From IMG/VR virus record IMGVR_UViG_2721755721_000001: a stretch of DNA of 64,000 bases, one strand, 5' to 3'. Shown in pieces: positions 3,837 to 29,883 of this stretch. The position numbers and the translations under genes were made by a program. The stretch is from a virus (lineage: Duplodnaviria > Heunggongvirae > Uroviricota > Caudoviricetes). Under the pieces are notes generated by a model. That model had not been told where the DNA came from, searched no databases, and saw nothing but the letters and a program-made list of their open reading frames with translations. Each line of letters starts with the position of its first letter. Positions within the stretch are counted from its first letter, which is position 1.

Positions 3837-4117
3837 CTGGCACCTCCTTCAATCAGTGCGCAGCTGTGTGCAATATCCGTCAAATCTGCCAGCAGGTACT
3901 CCATCAGCGCGGCGACACCAGGCGCACAGCCTGCGTCCAGTGCTCCGGCCTGAGACGGGTATTCAGAAAAGAGAAGCTGGAGCATGTCGCAGGCATTTCT
4001 TGCGCGGGTCAGCTTTCCGAAACTGTCCTCTGACAACCCATAGGCAAAAGCACCGGTATTGTGTTTTTCAGGCAAAGTGTGGCCCTGAGCACCGTTGTGC
4101 CCGTTTGAAATATTCAT
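3833..4117 (-). CDS. hypothetical protein (94 aa)
   Basis: ORF overlaps downstream gene by 4 bp, same operon. Confidence 0.45.
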   Translation of the reverse strand: MNISNGHNGAQGHTLPEKHNTGAFAYGLSEDSFGKLTRARNACDMLQLLFSEYPSQAGALDAGCAPGVAALMEYLLADLTDIAHSCALIEGGAR

Positions 4118-4148
4118 CGTGGATTACTCCGTTTTCAGCGGTATTTTG

Positions 4149-4538
4149 TCAGAGAAACTTTGAATAGTGACCGTCGTCAGGCTCAGCAGAACGCCGTATG
4201 CTACGCTCCCGCCAGCGGATAAATAGCACAGACGGATGCAGTGTCAGCGGGCCGGAACCACTACCGCCAGCAGGAGCTGGTGCAGGCTTCAAGAGCGGTA
4301 CATCAAACAGGCGCGTATACCGCTGTTCAAACCATGCCAGAGGGCAGGAAGAAAGCTTGTTGTCGCTGTCATGACGTATCAGCACTTCACAGCTGAATTC
4401 AGGATTAACCAGCGCCACAGAGGGCGAGGCTTCTATTAATCGGATAATCGTGACCGTCCAGCCACGTTCATGCTGCCAGCGTTCGCCGGGGTGCGGATAA
4501 TTACGCATGTTCACCTCCGCAGGGAATGCGCCCGGCAA
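4149..4538 (-). CDS. hypothetical protein (about 120-129 aa, start uncertain)
   Basis: ORF in operon orientation; overlaps the Icd-like gene. Confidence 0.4.
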   Translation of the reverse strand: MPGAFPAEVNMRNYPHPGERWQHERGWTVTIIRLIEASPSVALVNPEFSCEVLIRHDSDNKLSSCPLAWFEQRYTRLFDVPLLKPAPAPAGGSGSGPLTLHPSVLFIRWRERSIRRSAEPDDGHYSKFL

Positions 4539-4677
4539 AGCTCAGTACATAGTCCGGGGCAAGTCTGCGCCGCGCTGATCGTTCGTTATCTGCGGTGATC
4601 CTTAACATCACAGGACGGGCATTGCGTTGACTGCGGTTGATCGCCGCAAATAACCAGGTACACTTCTGTTTAGCCAT
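4501..4677 (-). CDS. Icd-like cell-division-inhibitor family small protein
   Basis: MAKQKCTWLFAAINRSQRNARPVMLRITADNERSARRRLAPDY... resembles P4-family Icd-like proteins; start placed at the internal MAKQK. Confidence 0.55.
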   Translation of the reverse strand: MAKQKCTWLFAAINRSQRNARPVMLRITADNERSARRRLAPDYVLSFAGRIPCGGEHA

Positions 4678-4793
4678 CTTCGTTACCTCATATAACGTGC
4701 TGGTCAGACGCCTCGGTGCTGCTGCAAACACTCCGGGGCGTTGCTATTTTGTTTTTCTGTGTGTAATGTGTCATTACACATAAATACATTACA

Positions 4794-4988
4794 ATGGGTG
4801 TAATTGACGTGTCAACACACAAAAATGAAAGACGTGGGAATCCGCCATTCCAGTTCCGACTTGACCCTGAACTGCGTGAACTGATGGAACAAGCACAACA
4901 GCAGGATGGCGATGAATCGCTAGCGGCTTGGATCAAGCGCATTCTACGCAAAGAGTTACAAAGCCGAGGTTTAGAACCAAAGAATTGA
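4794..4988 (+). CDS. small hypothetical protein (64 aa), divergent from the early operon
   Basis: ORF only; basic C-terminus. Confidence 0.3.
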   Translation: MGVIDVSTHKNERRGNPPFQFRLDPELRELMEQAQQQDGDESLAAWIKRILRKELQSRGLEPKN

Positions 4989-5037
4989 TTAATACGTTGG
5001 GGAGGCTTTTTTCTCCCCAGCTTTGTTAATATTGTCA

Positions 5038-5253
5038 TTACACTACTTCCTCCAATCCTGCTGATTGAGCTTTAACCCACTGCCTAATTTCTTGTGCATC
5101 GTAAACAGATACCCGTTTTGAAATGCGTATAGATTTGGGAAATTCAGGATTGTTCTTTTCCCAGCGCCAGAGAGTAACCGTACTTATTTGCAAAAAGTCA
5201 GCAGTAGCTCGTGGGCGGGCATGTCCAGTGATAGGATAAGTTTTTAATGTCAT
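5038..5253 (-). CDS. alpA: AlpA-family phage regulatory protein (HTH)
   Basis: MTLKTYPITGHARPRATADFLQISTVTLWRWEKNNPEFPKSIRISKRVSVYDAQEIRQWV - typical AlpA/Vis-type HTH. Confidence 0.8.
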   Translation of the reverse strand: MTLKTYPITGHARPRATADFLQISTVTLWRWEKNNPEFPKSIRISKRVSVYDAQEIRQWVKAQSAGLEEVV

Positions 5254-5355: not shown

Positions 5356-6237
5356 CTACCCCTTTTGTTTTAATCCCGCATGATTAACCGCTAATCGTAA
5401 TTTTCTTAAGATTTCTTGTTCATTAGTGATAAATATTGGAGGTAGCTCTCCTAAATGTTTAATTATGGCGTTAGTCCACTTTTCAGGACTTATCTCTTTT
5501 CTTTCACCACGACATTCGCTTGGGTATTTTGCTAATATATATATGGCTGCATTTAATAACCCCTCCCTATTTTTTGCATGATGCTCAGCAGTGTTATTTA
5601 ATCGCTTGGGGATTTTAGGTTCAGATGAAATTCTTTTCGTAAGTAAACTTGGCATAGGAATTCCAGTTTTTACTGATTTCCATATTAACTCTAAATCTCT
5701 TCGCATGATAAGAAGATCTTCAAATGGAATCTTAATTACCTTATTTCCTTCATATGAGGCCGTTGCCATCAAAACATTATCTCGTATTTTTACCGGTTTA
5801 AGCCTGAATTCATAATCTGGATCTATAGCTAATCCATTTTTTATGTCACTTATCATATCATCGGCGTACCAAATACCACAGGCAAATCCTATAATTTGAA
5901 GCCCATTTTCAAAATGTTCAAAGGAATCATCTTTAAGGTCATACCATATTGTTGAAAATTCCATCTCTAGTGATTGATTAGTTAATACGGGATGAATTAA
6001 GTCAATTTCCATTTTCTGATTTTTATTGAGGAAATTAACATTAAATCTAACTGCAAGTCCATCCGCCTTGAATGCGATATTAAAAGCGCCTATTTCGTAT
6101 AGATGTAATAAATCATCAATCTCGCATTCTAATAGTCTTGAAGCGCGTTCAAATGAACAATATTCTAATGGTGGTATTTTTTTGTCAATCCATAGATTTC
6201 CTAAGAATATAGTTTCATTCTCTGTTGAATGCTGCAT
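5356..6237 (-). CDS. hypothetical AT-rich cargo protein (293 aa) between integrase and alpA
   Basis: Long ORF with AGAGG Shine-Dalgarno; markedly AT-rich versus flanks; no motif recognised. Confidence 0.65.
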   Translation of the reverse strand: MQHSTENETIFLGNLWIDKKIPPLEYCSFERASRLLECEIDDLLHLYEIGAFNIAFKADGLAVRFNVNFLNKNQKMEIDLIHPVLTNQSLEMEFSTIWYDLKDDSFEHFENGLQIIGFACGIWYADDMISDIKNGLAIDPDYEFRLKPVKIRDNVLMATASYEGNKVIKIPFEDLLIMRRDLELIWKSVKTGIPMPSLLTKRISSEPKIPKRLNNTAEHHAKNREGLLNAAIYILAKYPSECRGERKEISPEKWTNAIIKHLGELPPIFITNEQEILRKLRLAVNHAGLKQKG

Positions 6238-6267
6238 TATGACCTCTGTTTTAAATTATAAGAGTAT

Positions 6268-7554
6268 TTAATTGATAATGTTAATACCTGATAAGTCATA
6301 AGGAGCATGGAATTCGTCCTTATTTAGTTCCAGATAATTAGACCACCATTGCATCATTCTGCGGCGTTCCTGCATGTGCTGCGCAAGATGCACATATGCT
6401 GCCCGCACTTCGTTTCTTTCTTGGTGACTCATCTGCCGTTCAACTGCATCGCGTGACCAGAGTCCTGATTCGGTCAGTGCAGAGCAGGCCATCGCCCTGA
6501 ACCCATGCAAGCAAACATCAGTTTGAGTGTCGTAACCCATCGTTCGCAGTGCTTTATTAACTGTGTTTTCGCTCATCGGTTTATATGGGTTGCTGTCACC
6601 GGGAAAAACCAGCAGATATTCACCACTGATTTTCCTTATATCCTCCAGTACCCCGATAGCCTGACTAGATAGCGGGACATAATGAGCAGCCCCCATCTTT
6701 GCACCCCGATCTGAGAATTTAACCCCTGCGATCTCTTCACGTTGTCCTGGTATCGTCCATAGCCCATTTTCAATGTCGATCTCCTCCCATCTGGCATGTC
6801 GTAGTTCGCTGGATCGCACAAAAGTGTGCAGGGAAAAGAGAACTGCTAGGCGAGTCAATGGTCTTCCCGTGTAACTTCTCGTTTTCGCTAACAGTTCAGG
6901 TAAACGTTCGAGAGGTAGTGCGGGGCGATGTCGTACTTTGGGGGCCGTAATTGCACCTTTTAGATCGTGGGCAGGGTTGTAATCGACAATTCCACGTTGC
7001 ACGGCATAACGGAAGATGCTCGTCATAGTGGTTTTTACACGGCTCGTTGTGGCACCAATTCCTTTCTCAGTCATCTCAACCAGCATCGGCATCAAGTCAC
7101 GGGTTTTGAGCGTATCGATAGGCTTTGAACCGATGGCAGGAAAGAGGTGGTTTTCCATTTCTCGGAGAATTTTTTTACGGGTGATCTCTTTCCACTCAGG
7201 ATGCCCCATCGTTCCACTATGCCACTCTCTGGCAACACTCTCGAACGTGGGGGAAATTGGGTCTTCCTTTTTGGGTTTCTTTGCTTCGCGAGGATCACGA
7301 CCATCGGCTAGTAGTTGCCTGGCTTCATCACGCCGTTTCCGCGCTGTTGCAAGTGAGACATCTGGGTAGACCCCTAATGCCAATGTCACTTGTTTTCCAT
7401 CAAAACGATAATTCATACGCCAGTATTTTCCACCAGTCTTTCGTACCAGTAGATACAAACTCCCTCCATCGGTAAGTTTGTAATCATTGGTCTTCGGCTT
7501 GGCGTTTTCTATCTGTTTGGGGGAAAGCACATTAATGGCCATATCTGTACTCAT
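6268..7554 (-). CDS. int: P4-type tyrosine integrase (start uncertain, ORF extends to 7602)
   Basis: N-terminus LSPKQIENAKPKTNDYKLTDGGSLYLLVRKTGGKYWRMNYR typical of P4-family integrases; C-terminal catalytic region with HGFR...Y. Confidence 0.85.
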   Translation of the reverse strand: MSTDMAINVLSPKQIENAKPKTNDYKLTDGGSLYLLVRKTGGKYWRMNYRFDGKQVTLALGVYPDVSLATARKRRDEARQLLADGRDPREAKKPKKEDPISPTFESVAREWHSGTMGHPEWKEITRKKILREMENHLFPAIGSKPIDTLKTRDLMPMLVEMTEKGIGATTSRVKTTMTSIFRYAVQRGIVDYNPAHDLKGAITAPKVRHRPALPLERLPELLAKTRSYTGRPLTRLAVLFSLHTFVRSSELRHARWEEIDIENGLWTIPGQREEIAGVKFSDRGAKMGAAHYVPLSSQAIGVLEDIRKISGEYLLVFPGDSNPYKPMSENTVNKALRTMGYDTQTDVCLHGFRAMACSALTESGLWSRDAVERQMSHQERNEVRAAYVHLAQHMQERRRMMQWWSNYLELNKDEFHAPYDLSGINIIN

Positions 7555-23022: not shown

Positions 23023-23627
23023 TGGCTAAACCAGCGCGAAGGAAATGCAAAATCTGTAAGGAATGGTTTCACCCGGCATTCTCAAATCAGTGGTGGTGCA
23101 GCCCGGAACACGGAACTAAATTAGCGCTCGAACGACGAAATAAAGAACGCGAAAAGGCGGAAAAAACAGCAGAGAAGAAACGACGACGAGAGGAGCAGAA
23201 ACAGAAAGATAAACTTAAGATTCGAAAACTCGCCTTAAAGCCCCGCAGTTACTGGATTAAACAAGCCCAACAAGCCGTAAACGCCTTCATCAGAGAAAGA
23301 GACCGCGACTTACCATGTATCTCGTGCGGAACGCTCACGTCTGCTCAGTGGGATGCCGGACATTACCGGACAACTGCTGCGGCACCTCAACTCCGATTTG
23401 ATGAACGCAATATTCACAAGCAATGCGTGGTGTGCAACCAGCACAAAAGCGGAAATCTCGTTCCGTATCGCGTCGAACTGATTAGCCGCATCGGGCAGGA
23501 AGCAGTAGACGAAATCGAATCAAACCATAACCGCCATCGCTGGACTGTCGAAGAGTGCAAGGCGATCAAGGCAGAGTACCAACAGAAACTCAAAGACCTG
23601 CGAAACAGCAGAAGTGAGGCTGCATGA
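23022..23627 (+). CDS. ninG: NinG (Rap) recombination endonuclease
   Basis: [31 protein letters not shown]... Confidence 0.85.
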
Positions 23628-24289
23628 ATATCTACGAAAGAATTGATGGCAGCAAATACCGAAATATTTGGGTAGTTGGCGATCTGCACGGATGCTACAC
23701 GAACCTGATGAAAAAACTGGAGACGATAGGATTCGACACCAAAAAAGACCTGCTTATCTCGGTTGGCGATTTGGTTGATCGTGGTGCAGAGAACGTTGAA
23801 TGCCTGGAATTAATCACATTCCCCTGGTTCAGAGCTGTACGTGGAAACCATGAGCACATGATGATTGATGGCTTATCAGAGCGTGGAAACGTCAATCACT
23901 GGCTGCTTAATGGCGGTGGCTGGTTCTTTAATCTCGATTACGACAAAGAAATTCTGGCTAAAGCTCTTGCCCATAAAGCAGATGAACTTCCGTTAATCAT
24001 CGAACTGGTGAGTAAAGGAAAAAAATATGTCATCTGCCACGCCGATTATCCTTGTGATGAATACGAGTTTGGAAAGCCAGTTGATCATCAGCAGGTAATC
24101 TGGAACCGCGAACGAATCAGCAACTCACAAGACGGGATCGTGAAAGAAATCAAAGGCGCGGACACGTTCATCTTTGGTCATACGCCAGCAGTGAAACCAC
24201 TCAAGTTTGCCAACCAGATGTATATCGATACCGGCGCAGTGTTCTGCGGAAACCTCACATTGATTCAGGTACAGGGAGAAGGCGCATGA
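23624..24289 (+). CDS. lambda-type Ser/Thr protein phosphatase (NinI)
   Basis: GDLHG, GDLVDRG, GNHE metallophosphatase motifs. Confidence 0.9.
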
Positions 24290-24909
24290 GACTCGAAAGC
24301 GTAGCTAAATTTCATTCGCCAAAAAGCCCGATGATGAGCGACTCACCACGGGCTACGGCTTCTGACTCTCTTTCCGGTACTGATGTGATGGCTGCTATGG
24401 GAATGGCGCAATCACAAGCCGGATTCGGAATGGCTGCATTCTGTGGTAAGCACGAACTCAGCCAGAACGACAAACAAAAGGCTATCAACTATCTGATGCA
24501 ATTTGCACACAAGGTATCGGGGAAATACCGTGGTGTGGCAAAGCTCGAAGGAAATACTAAGGCAAAGGTACTGCAAGTGCTCGCAATATTTGCTTATGCG
24601 GATTATTGCCGTAGTGCCGCGACGCCGGGCGCAAGATGCAGAGATTGCCACGGTACAGGTCGGGCAGTTGATATAGCCAAAACAGAGCTGTGGGGGAGAG
24701 TTGTTGAGAAAGAATGCGGAAGATGCAAAGGTGTCGGCTATTCAAGAATGCCAGCAAGCGCCGCATATCGCGCTGTAACGATGCTAATCCCAAACCTTAC
24801 TCAACCCACCTGGTCACGCACTGTTAAGCCGCTGTATGACGCTCTGGTTGTGCAATGCCACAAGGAAGAGTCAATCGCAGACAACATTTTGAATGCGATC
24901 ACACGTTAG
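24286..24909 (+). CDS. Q: late antiterminator Q (lambda Q type)
   Basis: 207 aa, zinc-finger CRDCHGTG...CGRCKG; matches lambda Q. Confidence 0.9.
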
Positions 24910-24939
24910 CGCCATGATTGCCACGGATGGCAACATATT

Positions 24940-24995
24940 AACGGCATAATATTGACTTTTTGAATAACTTTGGGGAAACTTGACACCAATAATGG
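24940..24995 (+). promoter_or_regulatory. putative late promoter pR'/qut region
   Basis: attgactttttgaataactttggggaaacttgaca resembles the lambda pR' region just downstream of Q. Confidence 0.35.
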
Positions 24996-25145
24996 GCGTT
25001 TTTTACATGTCATTGATGAGCTCAATAACCTGCCGCCGAGTAGTTTTTATGCTCTGAATTGTATTTGTGTAGTAAACATGCTGACTGCAATGTAATAGAG
25101 TTTTTTTAGCCTGTAACCTCTTGACGGCATTGAATTGCTTTTGTT

Positions 25146-25904
25146 ATGAGTTGTAAGCCAATGTTATCATCTTGTATTGGGGTGGTTATGAAGGATGGTG
25201 CGCTGCTCAGGAGTTCTTCACTTTTTATTGCCTACATGGGATGCCTTGGATGGGGGAGTGCTTATTTCTATGGATGGGGTACTTCTTTTTACTACGGCTT
25301 CCCATGGTGGATTGTAGGTGCAGGTGTTGATGATGTTGCCAGAAGTTTATTTTTTGCAGTTATCGTCATTGCTATATTTCTTATCGGTTGGGGTATTGGT
25401 GTTGTATTCTTTTTCGCAGTGAAAAGAAAACATTCTATGCAAGAGCTAAATGTATTTCGCCTTTATTTTGCTGTGGAATTATTGTTTGTGCCGGCAATTA
25501 TTGAGTTTTCTATATTGAGACAGAAGATTCAGGTACCTCTTTTGCTACTGTCAGCAGCGATTGCGCTGGCGGTTACAATTTCGATAAGATCTTATGGGCG
25601 ATTTTTATCGGTATCATGCTTCTATGATAAGCCATTTATAAAAAAACATTTTTTTGAGATTGTGATGATTGCTTTTGTGGCATATTTCTGGCTTTTTTCA
25701 TTTCTGACAGGATATTACAAACCACAGTTTAAGAAAGAATATGAAATGATTAATTATAATGATGATTGGTATTATGTTCTTGCTCGTTATGATAATTGTC
25801 TGGTTTTGTCTACTTCTTTCAATGCAGGTAGTAAAAGGTTTGTCATTTATCAATCAGCACAAGATAAGAATCTTCAGGTTGATATTGTAAGGACCAGAAT
25901 TTAA
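25146..25904 (+). CDS. hypothetical multi-pass membrane protein (252 aa; start may be the internal MKDGALL)
   Basis: AT-rich ORF with 4-5 hydrophobic segments; located between Q and the lysis genes. Confidence 0.55.
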   Translation: MSCKPMLSSCIGVVMKDGALLRSSSLFIAYMGCLGWGSAYFYGWGTSFYYGFPWWIVGAGVDDVARSLFFAVIVIAIFLIGWGIGVVFFFAVKRKHSMQELNVFRLYFAVELLFVPAIIEFSILRQKIQVPLLLLSAAIALAVTISIRSYGRFLSVSCFYDKPFIKKHFFEIVMIAFVAYFWLFSFLTGYYKPQFKKEYEMINYNDDWYYVLARYDNCLVLSTSFNAGSKRFVIYQSAQDKNLQVDIVRTRI

Positions 25905-26445
25905 TTGGCTGCATAAATAATATTTTAAGTTGCAAGTTGGCTATTCGTAGGAATAGAACCTCAGGCATGCTGAATGCGTTTTCTGAACATTGTTTTATAA
26001 ACTGTGTCTGCTTGCTGTTGTGATCCTGCTTTTAGTGATGGTGATGATGGATTTCACCAGCAGGATAATGTTGGTACTGACTGATGGCGCTCTGGTCTGC
26101 GGCATTGTGGTATTGCTGTGGCCGATGATGAAAGAACAGAATGAATAATTCTTGACTTTTTTGTTTACTGTTTATTAAAAAACCAACCGCATGGTGAATC
26201 CTCCTTGGAGGGGCTAAATGATCGAGTTTTAAGGGCACGTAGCGAGTTCTGTTTGATCATTGCAGAACTTAGCGGGAGGCGCCATGCGTACATCACTAGT
26301 GTTATTCCTTTTATCATTTTCCTTGTGAGTTCTGGCTGCGCATTGCGCAGCTTTTTTTTATGACCTGCCACTGGCAGATGGTCATCCTGTGATTTGATTC
26401 CGGTTCCGGCTTTTTAACTCTGTTCCTGTACACGGGAGAAATTCG

Positions 26446-28296
26446 ATGTCGATTAAACATTACGATGTTGTCAGGGCGGCGTCGCCGTCAGACCTTGCGG
26501 AAAAGCTGACACACAAACTGAAAGAGGGCTGGCAGCCATACGGCGGACCGGTTGCCATTACGCCGTACACACTGATGCAGGCGGTGGCTATTGAAGGAGA
26601 GCCACAGGTCGGCCCTTCATCTGAGCCGGATTGGTACTACGTCATCGTACTGGCCGGGCAGTCCAATGCCATGGCTTACGGTGAAGGGCTTCCGCTGCCG
26701 GATTCATACGATGCTCCGGATCCGCGCATTAAACAGCTGGCGCGCCGCAGTACAGTGACGCCGGGCGGGGCTGCCTGCAGATATAACGATATTATTCCGG
26801 CTGACCACTGTCTGCATGATGTGCAGGATATGAGTACGCTGAATCATCCGAGGGCTGACCTGAGCAAAGGGCAGTACGGCTGTGTCGGCCAGGGTTTACA
26901 TATTGCCAAAAAACTGCTCCCGTATATCCCGAATAACGCGGGGATCCTGCTGGTACCATGCTGTCGTGGTGGTTCGGCATTTACCCAGGGCGCGGAGGGG
27001 ACATTCAGCGAGTCCACGGGGGCCAGTCAGGATTCGGCACGCTGGGGGGTGGGCAAGCCGTTATATCAGGATCTGATTTCCCGCACAAAAGCGGCATTGC
27101 AGAAAAATCCCAAAAACGTTCTGCTGGCCGTCTGCTGGATGCAGGGTGAGTTTGACATGAGCGCCGCCACCCACGCACAGCAACCTGCGCTGTTTACAGC
27201 CATGCTGACACAGTTTCGTGCTGACCTCTCCGTGTTTAACGCGCAGTGCCATGGTGGCAGCGCTGCAGATGTGCCGTGGATTTGTGGTGACACGACGTAT
27301 TACTGGAAAAATACATACGCTACCCAATACGACACCGTGTACGGCGGGTATAAAAACAGGGAGAGTGAGGGCGTTTATTTTGTGCCCTTCATGACAGACG
27401 GTAACGGCGTCAATACCGCCACTAACGCGCCGGCAGAAGATCCGGATATTCCGGCATCAGGATATTACGGTGCGGCATCGAGAACGAATGGAAACCAGGT
27501 ATCATCAAACCGCCCGACACATTTCAGTTCATGGGCGCGCAGGAGCATTATTCCGGATCGTCTGGCAACCGCTATTCTGAACGCAGCCGGGCGCACCTCA
27601 GCCTTCATCAGTGGTAAGGCACCGGAAATCAAACCCTCGCCCGGCGGCAACACACCATCGGGTCCGTCTGCAGATACGTCCGTTCGCACAATCTCCCTGC
27701 TGCCGACAGCCGGAGAGGCTGCTGCGCAGGGCTGGACCATTAAGGACGGCGGAATTCAGTTGTCGGGTGGTGTATTTAAGATCGCCAAGCAGAGCAATAA
27801 AACCTGGTCCCTGACGCATCCGGTGGATGACGCAATTACCCTGCTGACACAGGGCGGCAGACTGACCTGTAAGTTCCGCCTGTCAGGCGCACTGACCAAC
27901 AATCAGTTCGGGCTGGGGATTTATCTGTATACGGATGCTCCCGTTCCTGATGGTGTGGCGATGACGGGTACCGGTAATCCGTTCCTGATGTCGTACTTCA
28001 CTCAGACCACTGACGGCAGAGTGAATCTGATGCATCACAGGAAAGCCGGAAACACGAAGCTGGGGGAGTTCGGCGATTACGGTAACGACTGGCAGACGCT
28101 GGAGCTGGTGTTCACCGCCGGCAGTGCCACGGTTACTCCGAAACTGAATGGAGTGGCTGGCCCGGCATTCCAGGTTATAAAAGACAGTCTGACACTGGGA
28201 CTGAATGCGCTGACGCTGACGGATGTTACAAAAAATGCAGCGTATGGCGTTGAGATAGAAAGTCTGGTGCTGGAGATAAATGCACCGGCAGCATAA
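26446..28296 (+). CDS. nanS: NanS-p-like prophage sialate O-acetylesterase (DUF1737 + SGNH/SASA domain)
   Basis: N-terminal MSIKHYDVVRAASPSDLAEKLTHKLKEGWQPYGGPV, then VIVLAGQSNAMAYGEG esterase motif; classic position downstream of Q. Confidence 0.8.
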   Translation: MSIKHYDVVRAASPSDLAEKLTHKLKEGWQPYGGPVAITPYTLMQAVAIEGEPQVGPSSEPDWYYVIVLAGQSNAMAYGEGLPLPDSYDAPDPRIKQLARRSTVTPGGAACRYNDIIPADHCLHDVQDMSTLNHPRADLSKGQYGCVGQGLHIAKKLLPYIPNNAGILLVPCCRGGSAFTQGAEGTFSESTGASQDSARWGVGKPLYQDLISRTKAALQKNPKNVLLAVCWMQGEFDMSAATHAQQPALFTAMLTQFRADLSVFNAQCHGGSAADVPWICGDTTYYWKNTYATQYDTVYGGYKNRESEGVYFVPFMTDGNGVNTATNAPAEDPDIPASGYYGAASRTNGNQVSSNRPTHFSSWARRSIIPDRLATAILNAAGRTSAFISGKAPEIKPSPGGNTPSGPSADTSVRTISLLPTAGEAAAQGWTIKDGGIQLSGGVFKIAKQSNKTWSLTHPVDDAITLLTQGGRLTCKFRLSGALTNNQFGLGIYLYTDAPVPDGVAMTGTGNPFLMSYFTQTTDGRVNLMHHRKAGNTKLGEFGDYGNDWQTLELVFTAGSATVTPKLNGVAGPAFQVIKDSLTLGLNALTLTDVTKNAAYGVEIESLVLEINAPAA

Positions 28297-28743
28297 TAAA
28301 AAAAGAGCCAGCGACTGACCTGAAAGAAGACGCTGGCTAAAAGGCCTTATATGTTTGTAGAGACTTATTTTTCACAGACAGCAATGATGCCTGTCAATAT
28401 ATTATCAATATGCGGATTGTTTCAGTTACAGATGCTTTATTAAGGAAAAAAACAGCCAGCACTGACTTTCGGTGGAGAGGTGCTGGCTCAGAAGGATAGT
28501 TGGATTTCACATGATACTTATGCCTGGCGGTATATTTTCTGACAGACAGTGACGGGTGTTGTCAAGATATTGTGTCATTTATAACCTGAATCAGGGGAGG
28601 CCGGAATGTTATCTGGCATTTTTAGCAGAGCCTGAATGCCATAATCACGGCTCCCGGAGTTGGCCGTCAGTGGGTGACACTGGCGGTTTTTTTGTTTTTC
28701 TTTACTTTCATTTTCTGTCGGCGGTGACGGAGACATACATCAG

Positions 28744-28950
28744 ATGGAAAAAATCACAACGGGTGTGTCATACACCACGTCAGCGGTGGGGACGGGATAC
28801 TGGTTACTGCAGCTGCTGGACAAAGTCTCTCCGTCCCAGTGGGTGGCAATCGGTGTGCTGGGGAGTCTGCTGTTTGGCCTGCTGACGTATCTGACTAACC
28901 TTTATTTCAAGATTAAAGAAGATAAGCGTAAGGCGGCGCGGGGAGAGTAA
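28744..28950 (+). CDS. class II holin (phage-21 S-like pinholin)
   Basis: 68 aa, two TM segments, charged C-terminus [13 protein letters not shown]; precedes a SAR endolysin. Confidence 0.75.
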
Positions 28951-29349: not shown

Positions 29350-29883
29350 ATGAACACCAAAATCAAATACGGCCTGTCGGCTGCCGTTCTGGCGCTGATT
29401 GCCGCAGGTGCGCCTGCGCCTGAAATCCTCGACCAGTTTCTGGATGAAAAGGAAGGTAACCACACCACGGCATACCGTGATGGCGCGGGTATCTGGACCA
29501 TCTGCCGCGGTGCCATCCTGGTGGATGGTAAACCTGTCGTTCCGGGCATGAAGTTGTCGAAGGAAAAATGCGACCAGGTTAACGCCATTGAACGTGATAA
29601 GGCGCTGGCATGGGTGGAGAAAAACATCAAAGTGCCACTGACCGAACCCCAGAAAGCGGGGATCGCGTCATTCTGTCCGTACAACATTGGTCCCGGTAAA
29701 TGTTTCCCGTCGACGTTTTACAGACGAATTAATGCAGGTGATCGCAGGGGAGCGTGTGAGGCGATTCGCTGGTGGATTAAGGACGGTGGCAGAGACTGCC
29801 GTATTCGCTCAAATAACTGTTACGGTCAGGTATCCCGTCGCGACCAGGAGAGTGCGCTGGCGTGCTGGGGAATTGACAGATAA
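29350..29883 (+). CDS. R: SAR endolysin (T4-type lysozyme, GH24)
   Basis: N-terminal SAR segment YGLSAAVLALIAAGAPA, E-x8-D-x5-T catalytic motif (EGNHTTAYRDGAGIWT). Confidence 0.9.
   Translation: MNTKIKYGLSAAVLALIAAGAPAPEILDQFLDEKEGNHTTAYRDGAGIWTICRGAILVDGKPVVPGMKLSKEKCDQVNAIERDKALAWVEKNIKVPLTEPQKAGIASFCPYNIGPGKCFPSTFYRRINAGDRRGACEAIRWWIKDGGRDCRIRSNNCYGQVSRRDQESALACWGIDR

Follow-up and report, generated by a model that had tools for sequence, protein, structure and literature searches.

Among the closest known counterparts of the locus studied here are the late-region morons of lambdoid phages, such as stx, the LT-II genes and the nanS-p esterase gene, together with bor and lom of lambda. The locus lies in a 64,000-nucleotide stretch of viral DNA (Caudoviricetes, IMG/VR record IMGVR_UViG_2721755721_000001), which as a whole is referred to below as the window. 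Positions 25050-26360 hold three genes: one for a multi-pass membrane protein of the TfpB family (PF27470), one for the small membrane protein TciB (DUF3927) and one for the small RNA (sRNA) PasD2. Like the morons named above, these genes sit between the antiterminator gene Q with its late promoter pR' and the lysis genes, and their base composition is foreign; unlike Stx, LT-II and NanS-p, they specify a membrane protein, a micro-protein and an sRNA, and neither a toxin nor an enzyme.

The same gene order has been described in phage 434, in which the two proteins are recorded as CPT_434_68 ('putative membrane protein') and CPT_434_69 ('TciB'). The counterparts in enteropathogenic Escherichia coli (EPEC) strain E2348/69 are E2348C_0686 and E2348C_0687 in prophage PP2 and E2348C_1012 in prophage PP4. 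The membrane proteins of 434, 2B8, the O157:H7 prophage Sp3 and EPEC were 99.6% identical to that of the window, and the TciB proteins 100%. TciB is also homologous from end to end to TciB of phage P1, with which it shares two hydrophobic helices and the DFTS.I and LVWP motifs. In P1, tciB has an ATG start that overlaps the stop codon of the TerB-like gene tciA and is followed by tciC, whereas the locus here has neither tciA nor tciC, its tciB begins with TTG, and the unrelated TfpB-like gene lies upstream. PasD1 and PasD2 of EPEC (EcOnc13 in enterohaemorrhagic E. coli, EHEC) have the same neighbours as the sRNA described here, namely a DUF3927 gene upstream and an esterase gene downstream, and PasD has been reported to be related to STnc100 and to have Q and LpxR as conserved neighbours (Zhu, Shabalina and Storz, bioRxiv 2026.05.13.724894). 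Finally, the large protein has the common architecture of PF27470 (an aromatic/glycine-rich N-terminal helix pair, a variable helical core and a conserved beta domain), including the motif YKPQ..EY..YYVLAR..LILS in the beta domain. The name of that family presumably refers to a pilin locus, whereas the context here is a prophage late region.

Judged by sequence comparison, 25050-26360 is a mobile cargo block of three genes with a low guanine plus cytosine (GC) content, which in this lambdoid prophage has been inserted after the late promoter and ahead of the esterase and lysis genes. Our preferred interpretation, to which we assign a probability of about 0.55, is that the block is host-benefiting inner-membrane cargo that would act alone, be expressed in the resting prophage and serve envelope adaptation or exclusion. 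This value refers to the class of role and would be much lower for any specific activity.

Distribution and composition of the block

Gene order and Pfam matches in the window place the locus in the late control region of a lambdoid prophage. The features of the block and its control elements are as follows.

24953-24988, plus strand: late promoter pR' with a qut-like region (-35 TTGACT at 24953-24958, -10 GAAACT at 24975-24980)
25025-25048, plus strand: degraded remnant of a tR'-type terminator (the homologous site folds at -2.2 kcal/mol, U5)
25121-25170, plus strand: two overlapping candidate sigma-70 promoters (TTGACG-18-TGtTATGAG; TTGTTA-18-TATCAT preceded by TG)
25188-25904, plus strand: gene of the TfpB-family (PF27470) predicted inner-membrane protein, 238 amino acids (from homologues and conserved start)
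25990-26148, plus strand: tciB (DUF3927), 52 amino acids, two predicted transmembrane helices; TTG start, no evident Shine-Dalgarno sequence
26152-26180, plus strand: candidate PasD2 promoter (-35 TTGACT at 26152-26157, 17-nt spacer, TTAAAA at 26175-26180)
26189-26359, plus strand: PasD2, Hfq-dependent and STnc100-related sRNA (from identity to EPEC pasD2, probe match and Rfam)
26334-26360, plus strand: intrinsic terminator of PasD2, -15.5 kcal/mol, the only strong terminator of the block

A 1.4-kb stretch covering the block (25040-26450) was 98-99% identical in phages 434 (OL657226) and 2B8, in O157:H7 strains, among them Sakai with its prophage Sp3 (ECs_0816), and in PP2 of EPEC E2348/69. 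Among 5426 complete E. coli genomes, 682 carried the block over at least 80% of its length. Lambda, HK97 and their relatives share the Q/pR' sequence and are without the block. The left junction was mosaic: Q and pR' are of lambda type in the window and in 2B8, whereas 434, O157 and EPEC have a Q82-type Q, and homology of the window to these three begins at 25027-25044. In O157 Sp3 and EPEC PP4 the block abuts the holin gene directly and the esterase gene is absent, unlike in the window. A 3054-bp contig labelled as a Veillonella sp. metagenome-assembled genome was 98.8% identical to positions 24000-26500; it is almost certainly E. coli prophage DNA that was mis-binned into the Veillonella assembly.

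The first-pass annotation of the window, made from the DNA alone, had proposed a moron at this site: an AT-rich membrane-protein gene immediately after Q and the late promoter, in the interval where Shiga toxin and other morons are found, with no stx genes present. These points were borne out. The large open reading frame (ORF) has 36.1% GC, against 50.0% for Q, 55.9% for the esterase gene and 51.8% for the whole window. It directly follows a Q gene recognized by the Pfam Antiterm family and a lambda-like pR', and the interval from Q to the holin gene holds only the two ORFs, the sRNA gene and the esterase gene. By both comparison and composition the block has the marks of a moron, being extra DNA of 36% GC between flanks of 50-56%, and cargo of foreign composition occupies the stretch between Q and the lysis genes.

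The TfpB-like protein and its family

The large gene had been given as a 252-residue frame from 25146 to 25904. The frame exists, but the start codon was misplaced. Full-length homologues have 236-238 residues, and in an alignment of upstream regions the start codons of eight diverged loci fall on the ATG at 25188 (M15 of the longer frame; GTG in enterotoxigenic E. coli, ETEC), so that the gene start was moved to 25188 and the product has 238 residues. A G-rich, Shine-Dalgarno-like stretch precedes this start, and conservation across the eight aligned loci does not extend to the ATGs farther upstream, at 25146 and 25161. The ORF has 103 database homologues, with E values down to 1e-157, and is therefore not a chance frame. 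An exact 247-residue form (25161-25904) is already present in public collections, in a cluster represented by the homologue P0001 (99% identical), and PHROG 1521 (function unknown) matched the protein with E = 1.5e-153. All 103 homologues, including P0001, carry the precomputed label PF27470.1. Family membership rests on these labels; a direct Pfam scan of the protein returned 0 families because the release scanned predates the PF27470 model.

The family has few members: 1.84 billion representative proteins, searched with a profile, yielded only about 72 clusters at 50% identity. The enteric members come from Escherichia, Citrobacter, Cronobacter, Klebsiella, Enterobacter, Salmonella and Yersinia, and distant members (~25% identity) from Neisseria, Avibacterium, Gallibacterium, Actinobacillus, Pasteurella and Mannheimia; the rest of the 72 matches are unnamed metagenomic proteins. 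Across enterobacterial genera identity ranges from 39% to 68%, and invariant motifs and intact reading frames are kept from these genera to the distant members. The name TfpB presumably derives from the tfpB ORF in the pilin inversion region of Moraxella bovis. There was no Moraxella member among those profile matches that were looked up, and one E. coli member is called 'protein tfpB' by its source. A literature search on 'TfpB' returned unrelated matches (chemistry, anaesthesia and an Acinetobacter PilB-like protein).

The first-pass annotation had called the product a multi-pass membrane protein and proposed a topology prediction. The AlphaFold2 model and the Kyte-Doolittle profile agree with this, giving five long helices. 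With an alignment that included Neisseria and Pasteurellaceae, AlphaFold2 reached a mean predicted local distance difference test (pLDDT) score of 81 and a predicted template modelling (pTM) score of 0.72 for the 238-residue protein; a model made from an enterobacterial-only alignment (pLDDT 60) was not used. The predicted helices span residues 6-36, 47-78, 89-111, 116-136 and 155-181, and a small five-stranded C-terminal beta domain is predicted within 184-235. Two parts of the family are most conserved, namely the aromatic/glycine-rich N-terminal helix pair (AY.G.LGWGSAYFYGWG.S.YYGFPWW) and the segment YFW.FSF..G.YKPQ.KKEY...YYVLAR....LILS, and variation falls in the helical middle. Positive charges cluster in loops 79-88 and 137-154, which suggests that these loops are cytoplasmic and the beta domain periplasmic; the start of the beta domain is lysine-rich, which speaks against a firm topology.

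Searches with the protein gave no biochemical role, in keeping with the first-pass annotation, which had assigned none. A Foldseek search of the model against PDB and BFVD found nothing at E <= 1e-3. The weak resemblances obtained were to MscS and to the SH3-like domain of an integrase, and they suggest no more than 'helices plus a small beta barrel'. A sequence-profile search of PDB gave 0 matches at E <= 1, and there was no match in NCBIfam or PADLOC.

Outside lambdoid prophages, TfpB-family genes occur in a variety of settings. In Avibacterium the gene lies between an M48 peptidase gene and an ABC-F gene, and in Neisseria arctica between guaA and a SulP transporter gene; the surroundings are housekeeping genes, with no phage nearby in either case. 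The Salmonella gene adjoins sseJ in divergent orientation, and from gene order it is probably STM1630. STM1630 is reported to be co-regulated with Salmonella pathogenicity island 2 (PMC2639726); it was chosen for study from macrophage RNA sequencing (RNA-seq) and is naturally silenced in sequence type 313 (ST313) (PMC6785131), and it was scored as hypermotile in one screen (PMC4219756). The gene of Citrobacter rodentium adjoins lpxR, which is also found just upstream of Q in 434, O157 and EPEC. The C. rodentium (L005, 4863-6717) and Salmonella (L015, 4349-6717) genes lie in the same neighbourhood of adh, methyl-accepting chemotaxis protein (MCP) and LysR genes; the lpxR copy beside the former is split, and the neighbour of the latter is sseJ. 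The arrangement suggests that the site of insertion is old and that different cargo has survived in Citrobacter and in Salmonella. On ETEC plasmids, a 59% identical copy, flanked by insertion sequence elements, lies 0.87 kb from eltAB in divergent orientation (contigs L006-L009: TfpB-family gene at 6001-6714, eltAB at 3987-5134 on the minus strand). About 70 nt upstream of this copy are conserved with the window, and a remnant of a lambdoid late region may survive at the LT locus.

The small gene tciB, PasD2 and transcription of the block

Downstream of the large gene, a 36-codon hydrophobic micro-ORF at 26038-26148 had been proposed as unannotated. The frame does encode the peptide given for it and belongs to a real, conserved coding sequence, but it is the 3' two-thirds of a 52-codon ORF. 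Nor is that ORF unannotated: RefSeq lists the identical protein as WP_000499454.1 ('DUF3927 family protein'), and the phage 434 record calls it 'TciB'. Pfam PF13064 (DUF3927) matched residues 7-50 (53 bits against a cutoff of 25, E = 3.4e-14), PHROG 1470 'TciB-like' matched with E = 2.5e-17, and hhalign aligned residues 1-52 with P1 TciB (98.7% probability, 42% identity). All DUF3927 family members keep the N-terminal hydrophobic helix; the ATG first chosen as the start thus falls inside the first of the two transmembrane helices. Homology of either product to a known lysis or structural gene was looked for and none was found, and the micro-ORF proved to be conserved from P1 to lambdoid phages.

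The label 'Tci' stands for tellurite/colicin resistance and inhibition of cell division. It is a name by homology of the P1 tciABC operon, given for the sole reason that TciA resembles TerB, and tciA, tciB and tciC are each non-essential for P1 by CRISPR interference (PMC10695390). The P1-type coupling was not found here: an 85-nt gap separates tciB from the TfpB-like gene, and there was neither a TerB match nor a tciC. Elsewhere among EHEC-type prophages the tciB start codon, ATG or GTG, overlaps the stop of a TerB-like ORF, and in lambdoid prophages a GTGA overlap joins tciB to the 3' part of such a tciA. The window is homologous to these tciA-tciB loci from a point at most a few codons away from the tciB start, and the tciA sequence appears to have been replaced here by the TfpB-like gene. 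In two Stx-phage-like prophages without a TfpB gene (L024 and L029, 4858-5004), the TerB-like TciA is reduced to a 48-residue C-terminal fragment and tciB (GTG start) is intact.

We considered whether TciB might be a partner of the TfpB-like protein and rejected this. A DUF3927 neighbour is absent at the Avibacterium, Neisseria, Salmonella, C. rodentium and ETEC loci, so that the diverged TfpB genes are never beside DUF3927, and DUF3927 genes are present in many lambdoid prophages without a TfpB gene. From this mutual absence, the two ORFs are independent modules and not a pair. A 41-residue ORF following the Salmonella homologue was unrelated.

The pairwise ratio of nonsynonymous to synonymous substitution rates (dN/dS) of tciB was ~0.6 against other lambdoid copies and 0.3 against P1. 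The gene is broken in two lineages: in Escherichia albertii NBRC 107761 (L011, 5805-5992) it is frameshifted by a 21-nt repeat expansion (LEAGGWR units), and in Escherichia sp. MOD1-EC7003 (L012, 5807-5908) it has an in-frame stop codon. The TfpB-like gene upstream is intact in both. Other E. albertii proteins have 1-3 copies of the LEAGGWR repeat. Taken together, tciB reads as a real, conserved small membrane protein gene that is weakly constrained in this arrangement, and TciB looks like a decaying accessory gene. A literature search on DUF3927 gave little beyond passing mention.

The third gene, PasD2, begins beyond the end coordinate of the first-pass annotation, which had missed that the terminator of the block belongs to an sRNA. 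Positions 26189-26359 were 99.4% identical over 171 nt to pasD2 of E2348/69 (NC_011601, 741157-741328). In EPEC, PasD2 is an Hfq-dependent sRNA encoded between E2348C_0687 (159 nt) and the esterase gene E2348C_0688 (PMC8550237, supplement), and that region has the same genes (WP_001302581.1, WP_000499454.1) with the same spacing as the window. The published PasD2 northern probe matched 26321-26344 with one mismatch, which is also what its authors report (PMC8550237). The Rfam STnc100 model matched 26159-26363 over its full length, below threshold (41.3 bits, with the gathering score set at 47; E = 4.5e-7). Since PasD2 maps to 26189-26359, the only strong terminator of the block is that of PasD2. 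The -35 element of the candidate PasD2 promoter begins 4 nt after the tciB stop codon, and its spacing fits a 5' end at 26189; the -10 element is weak. Elsewhere the same site is recorded as a 62-residue 'putative membrane protein' (phage 434) or as a minus-strand pseudogene or hypothetical gene (Prokaryotic Genome Annotation Pipeline, PGAP), and these are probably mis-calls of the sRNA gene. A third ORF at 26205-26363 was likewise rejected as coding, as it overlaps PasD2 and its terminator. Within the 5' region of PasD2 (26198-26236) lies an inverted repeat, CCTCCTTGGAGGGG, the second arm of which resembles a strong Shine-Dalgarno sequence; after it comes a mini-ORF of four codons (ATG ATC GAG TTT TAA).

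With regard to transcription signals, the 3' end of Q is nearly identical to that of lambda, and the end of Q, the -35 element, the Q-binding region and the -10 element are nearly collinear with lambda. A promoter/qut site is annotated here in related phage records. Base-by-base alignment places the likely start of the pR' transcript near 24988, and similarity to lambda ends ~10 nt beyond. The terminator of phage 434 (AAACCCGCUGCCGAGUGGG followed by U8; L001, 3976-4012) folds at -12.5 kcal/mol (z = -3.5). Such an intact hairpin precedes the gene in 434, O157 Sp3 and EPEC PP2, whereas it is degraded in the window and in 2B8, which have the lambda-type Q. As a result, the first strong stop after pR' in the window is the PasD2 terminator, ~1.37 kb downstream. 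The pR' of lambda is constitutively active; if the same holds here, one may conjecture a ~1.37-kb Q-independent transcript running through both ORFs to the PasD2 terminator. Closer to the gene, both promoter-like elements lie within 70 nt of the start at 25188, and the TTGACG...TTATG element is retained in the ETEC plasmid copy.

Expression values were available from a published RNA-seq study of EPEC without deliberate induction (Pearl Mizrahi et al., 2021; PMC8550237); they come from another strain, with identical proteins and a near-identical locus (L003). The baseMean of the TfpB-like gene was 226 in PP2 (E2348C_0686) and 147 in PP4 (E2348C_1012), that of tciB (E2348C_0687) 37, of pasD2 11017 and of the esterase gene 102. 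The corresponding values were 3.2-5.4 for the holins and the endolysin and 0.4-1.4 for upstream phage genes (PMC8550237). The TfpB-like genes and tciB were thus transcribed ~10-65 times above the lysis genes in cultures that had not been deliberately induced, a pattern that points to lysogenic-conversion cargo rather than late genes.

Flanking genes and possible roles of the block

The genes on either side of the block are listed here.

23624-24289: NinI-type phosphatase gene, upstream of Q
24286-24909, plus strand: lambda-type antiterminator Q, 207 amino acids (Pfam Antiterm, E = 4e-57), left border of the cargo block
26446-28296, plus strand: NanS-p-type sialate O-acetylesterase, 616 amino acids (Pfam DUF1737, SASA and DUF6645), right border of the block
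28446-28530, minus strand: PasA-like sRNA, between the esterase and holin genes
28744-28950, plus strand: P21-type class II holin, 68 amino acids (Pfam Phage_holin_2_1, E = 1.2e-32)
29350-29883: endolysin gene, downstream of the holin gene

The esterase has the length and position of E2348C_0688. Downstream of the block there is a canonical P21-type set of holin, endolysin and spanin genes, in which the product of 28744-28950 is, by its sequence, the genuine holin of the prophage. The published PasA northern probe matched 28455-28479 exactly, placing a PasA-like sRNA on the minus strand between the esterase and holin genes; its 3' 68 nt are 94% identical to PasA of E2348/69, and its 5' end differs, as has been reported for PasA variants. 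A search for transfer RNA genes found none in the window.

If the block is host-benefiting inner-membrane cargo, as we prefer to think, it would serve lysogenic conversion and not virion production or lysis. In the resting prophage, low to moderate transcription would start from the promoter-like elements within ~70 nt of the start codon at 25188, and in the lambda-Q variant, with its terminator degraded, additional transcription from pR' would be possible. After induction, Q-modified polymerase would read through the block into the esterase and lysis genes and raise expression. The TfpB-like protein would insert in the inner membrane and work alone, as suggested by the fact that its relatives are solo genes in other contexts, and its role would be a host-benefiting envelope function in host-associated stress adaptation or exclusion. 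TciB would be the membrane partner left over from a P1-type tciA(TerB)-tciB pair in which tciA was replaced; with its TTG start, tciB is probably weakly translated and may be drifting towards loss.

It should be noted that several observations weigh against this interpretation. First, the -10 element of pR' (GAAACT) differs from that of lambda (TAAATT) at two positions and is weaker, and a consensus promoter scan gave no more sites than shuffled sequence. Second, the EPEC copies keep the upstream terminator and are therefore uninformative on the pR' route, and in bulk RNA-seq a few spontaneously induced cells may contribute to the signal; such a contribution is disfavoured because the lysis genes are near-silent. 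Third, no defect in intramacrophage replication was reported for the STM1630 deletion (PMC6785131), and the equation of STM1630 with the family member is itself drawn from gene order. Finally, tciB is intact where tciA is already truncated, which argues for a TciA-independent function rather than a decaying remnant.

A narrower possibility is that the lysogen makes the TfpB-like protein for superinfection exclusion or anti-phage defence, as a membrane protein that blocks DNA entry or aborts infection by other phages, comparable with exclusion-type proteins such as P22 SieA, HK97 gp15 and lambda RexB. We regard this as unlikely. It would fit a prophage-encoded inner-membrane protein with a moron position and foreign GC content, and the identical gene is transcribed in EPEC without deliberate induction; the solo chromosomal copies in Neisseria and Pasteurellaceae are also compatible with a stand-alone defence gene. 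However, it is without homology support: the 238-residue protein gave no PADLOC match and no match to a solved or viral fold.

The block might also be selectively neutral baggage that persists through linkage to Q, PasD2 and the lysis region and spreads with successful prophages, with tciB in particular left untranslated. The 98-99% identity of the E. coli copies would then reflect recent spread rather than long retention, and the TTG start of tciB without a Shine-Dalgarno sequence, its dN/dS of ~0.6 and its two broken copies all suit such a view, as do the loss of STM1630 without a macrophage phenotype and its natural silencing in ST313. On the other hand, TfpB is conserved across enterobacterial genera (39-68%) and, at ~25%, into Neisseria and Pasteurellaceae, it has been kept where the surrounding prophage decayed (C. 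rodentium, Salmonella and the ETEC plasmids), and tciB is conserved over its full length from P1 to lambdoid phages. We consider neutral baggage distinctly unlikely, although less so for tciB.

That one or both proteins modulate lysis, as a holin (a role the first-pass annotation had thought possible for the membrane protein), antiholin or timing factor expressed with the late operon, is highly improbable. In its favour, both products are small or multi-pass membrane proteins whose genes fall in the stretch from Q/pR' to the lysis cassette, and TciB has the size and two-helix layout of class II holins. Against it, searches of Pfam, PHROGs and NCBIfam gave no holin match for either ORF, neither adjoins the endolysin gene, and a bona fide P21-type holin with its endolysin and spanin is already encoded downstream. 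Between the block and the lysis genes come the 1.85-kb esterase gene and two sRNA genes. The tciB of P1 belongs to the tciABC operon, at a distance from the lysis genes of that phage, and proved non-essential under CRISPR interference. TfpB-family genes also occur alone without a phage nearby, and the EPEC block is transcribed while the holins are almost silent. More generally, neither protein gave a homology or fold match to lysis, structural or known defence functions.

A further reading concerns the company that TfpB genes keep: they occupy the stx slot of lambdoid prophages and lie beside eltAB (ETEC plasmids), sseJ (Salmonella) and lpxR (Citrobacter and EHEC). The TfpB proteins could form a class of envelope factors whose genes move together with those of toxins and effectors, and at the same time the loss of tR' could yield a Q-independent pR' transcript of the TfpB-like gene, tciB and PasD2. 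We put forward this combined proposal as speculative and, taken as a whole, quite improbable. If it were true, TfpB proteins would contribute to host-associated fitness or to toxin/envelope biology, and a 'late' promoter would constitutively drive lysogenic-conversion genes and feed an abundant Hfq sRNA.

Both proteins are already catalogued, with function unassigned, and the block is no new kind of element. They are encoded in the textbook phage 434 and in many EHEC, EPEC and ETEC genomes, which will be no surprise to phage specialists. The gains lie in annotation: the membrane protein begins at M15 of the longer frame, the micro-protein is the 52-residue TciB, and the 'third ORF' of 434 and RefSeq is PasD2. 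Furthermore, TciB is seen here as detached from its TerB partner, and PasD2 and PasA are identified next to it. As for the TfpB family, it is small and conserved, searches gave it no relative by fold, and its genes turn up repeatedly next to virulence loci of horizontal origin; with these traits it is a sensible target for gene deletion in EHEC, EPEC or Salmonella.

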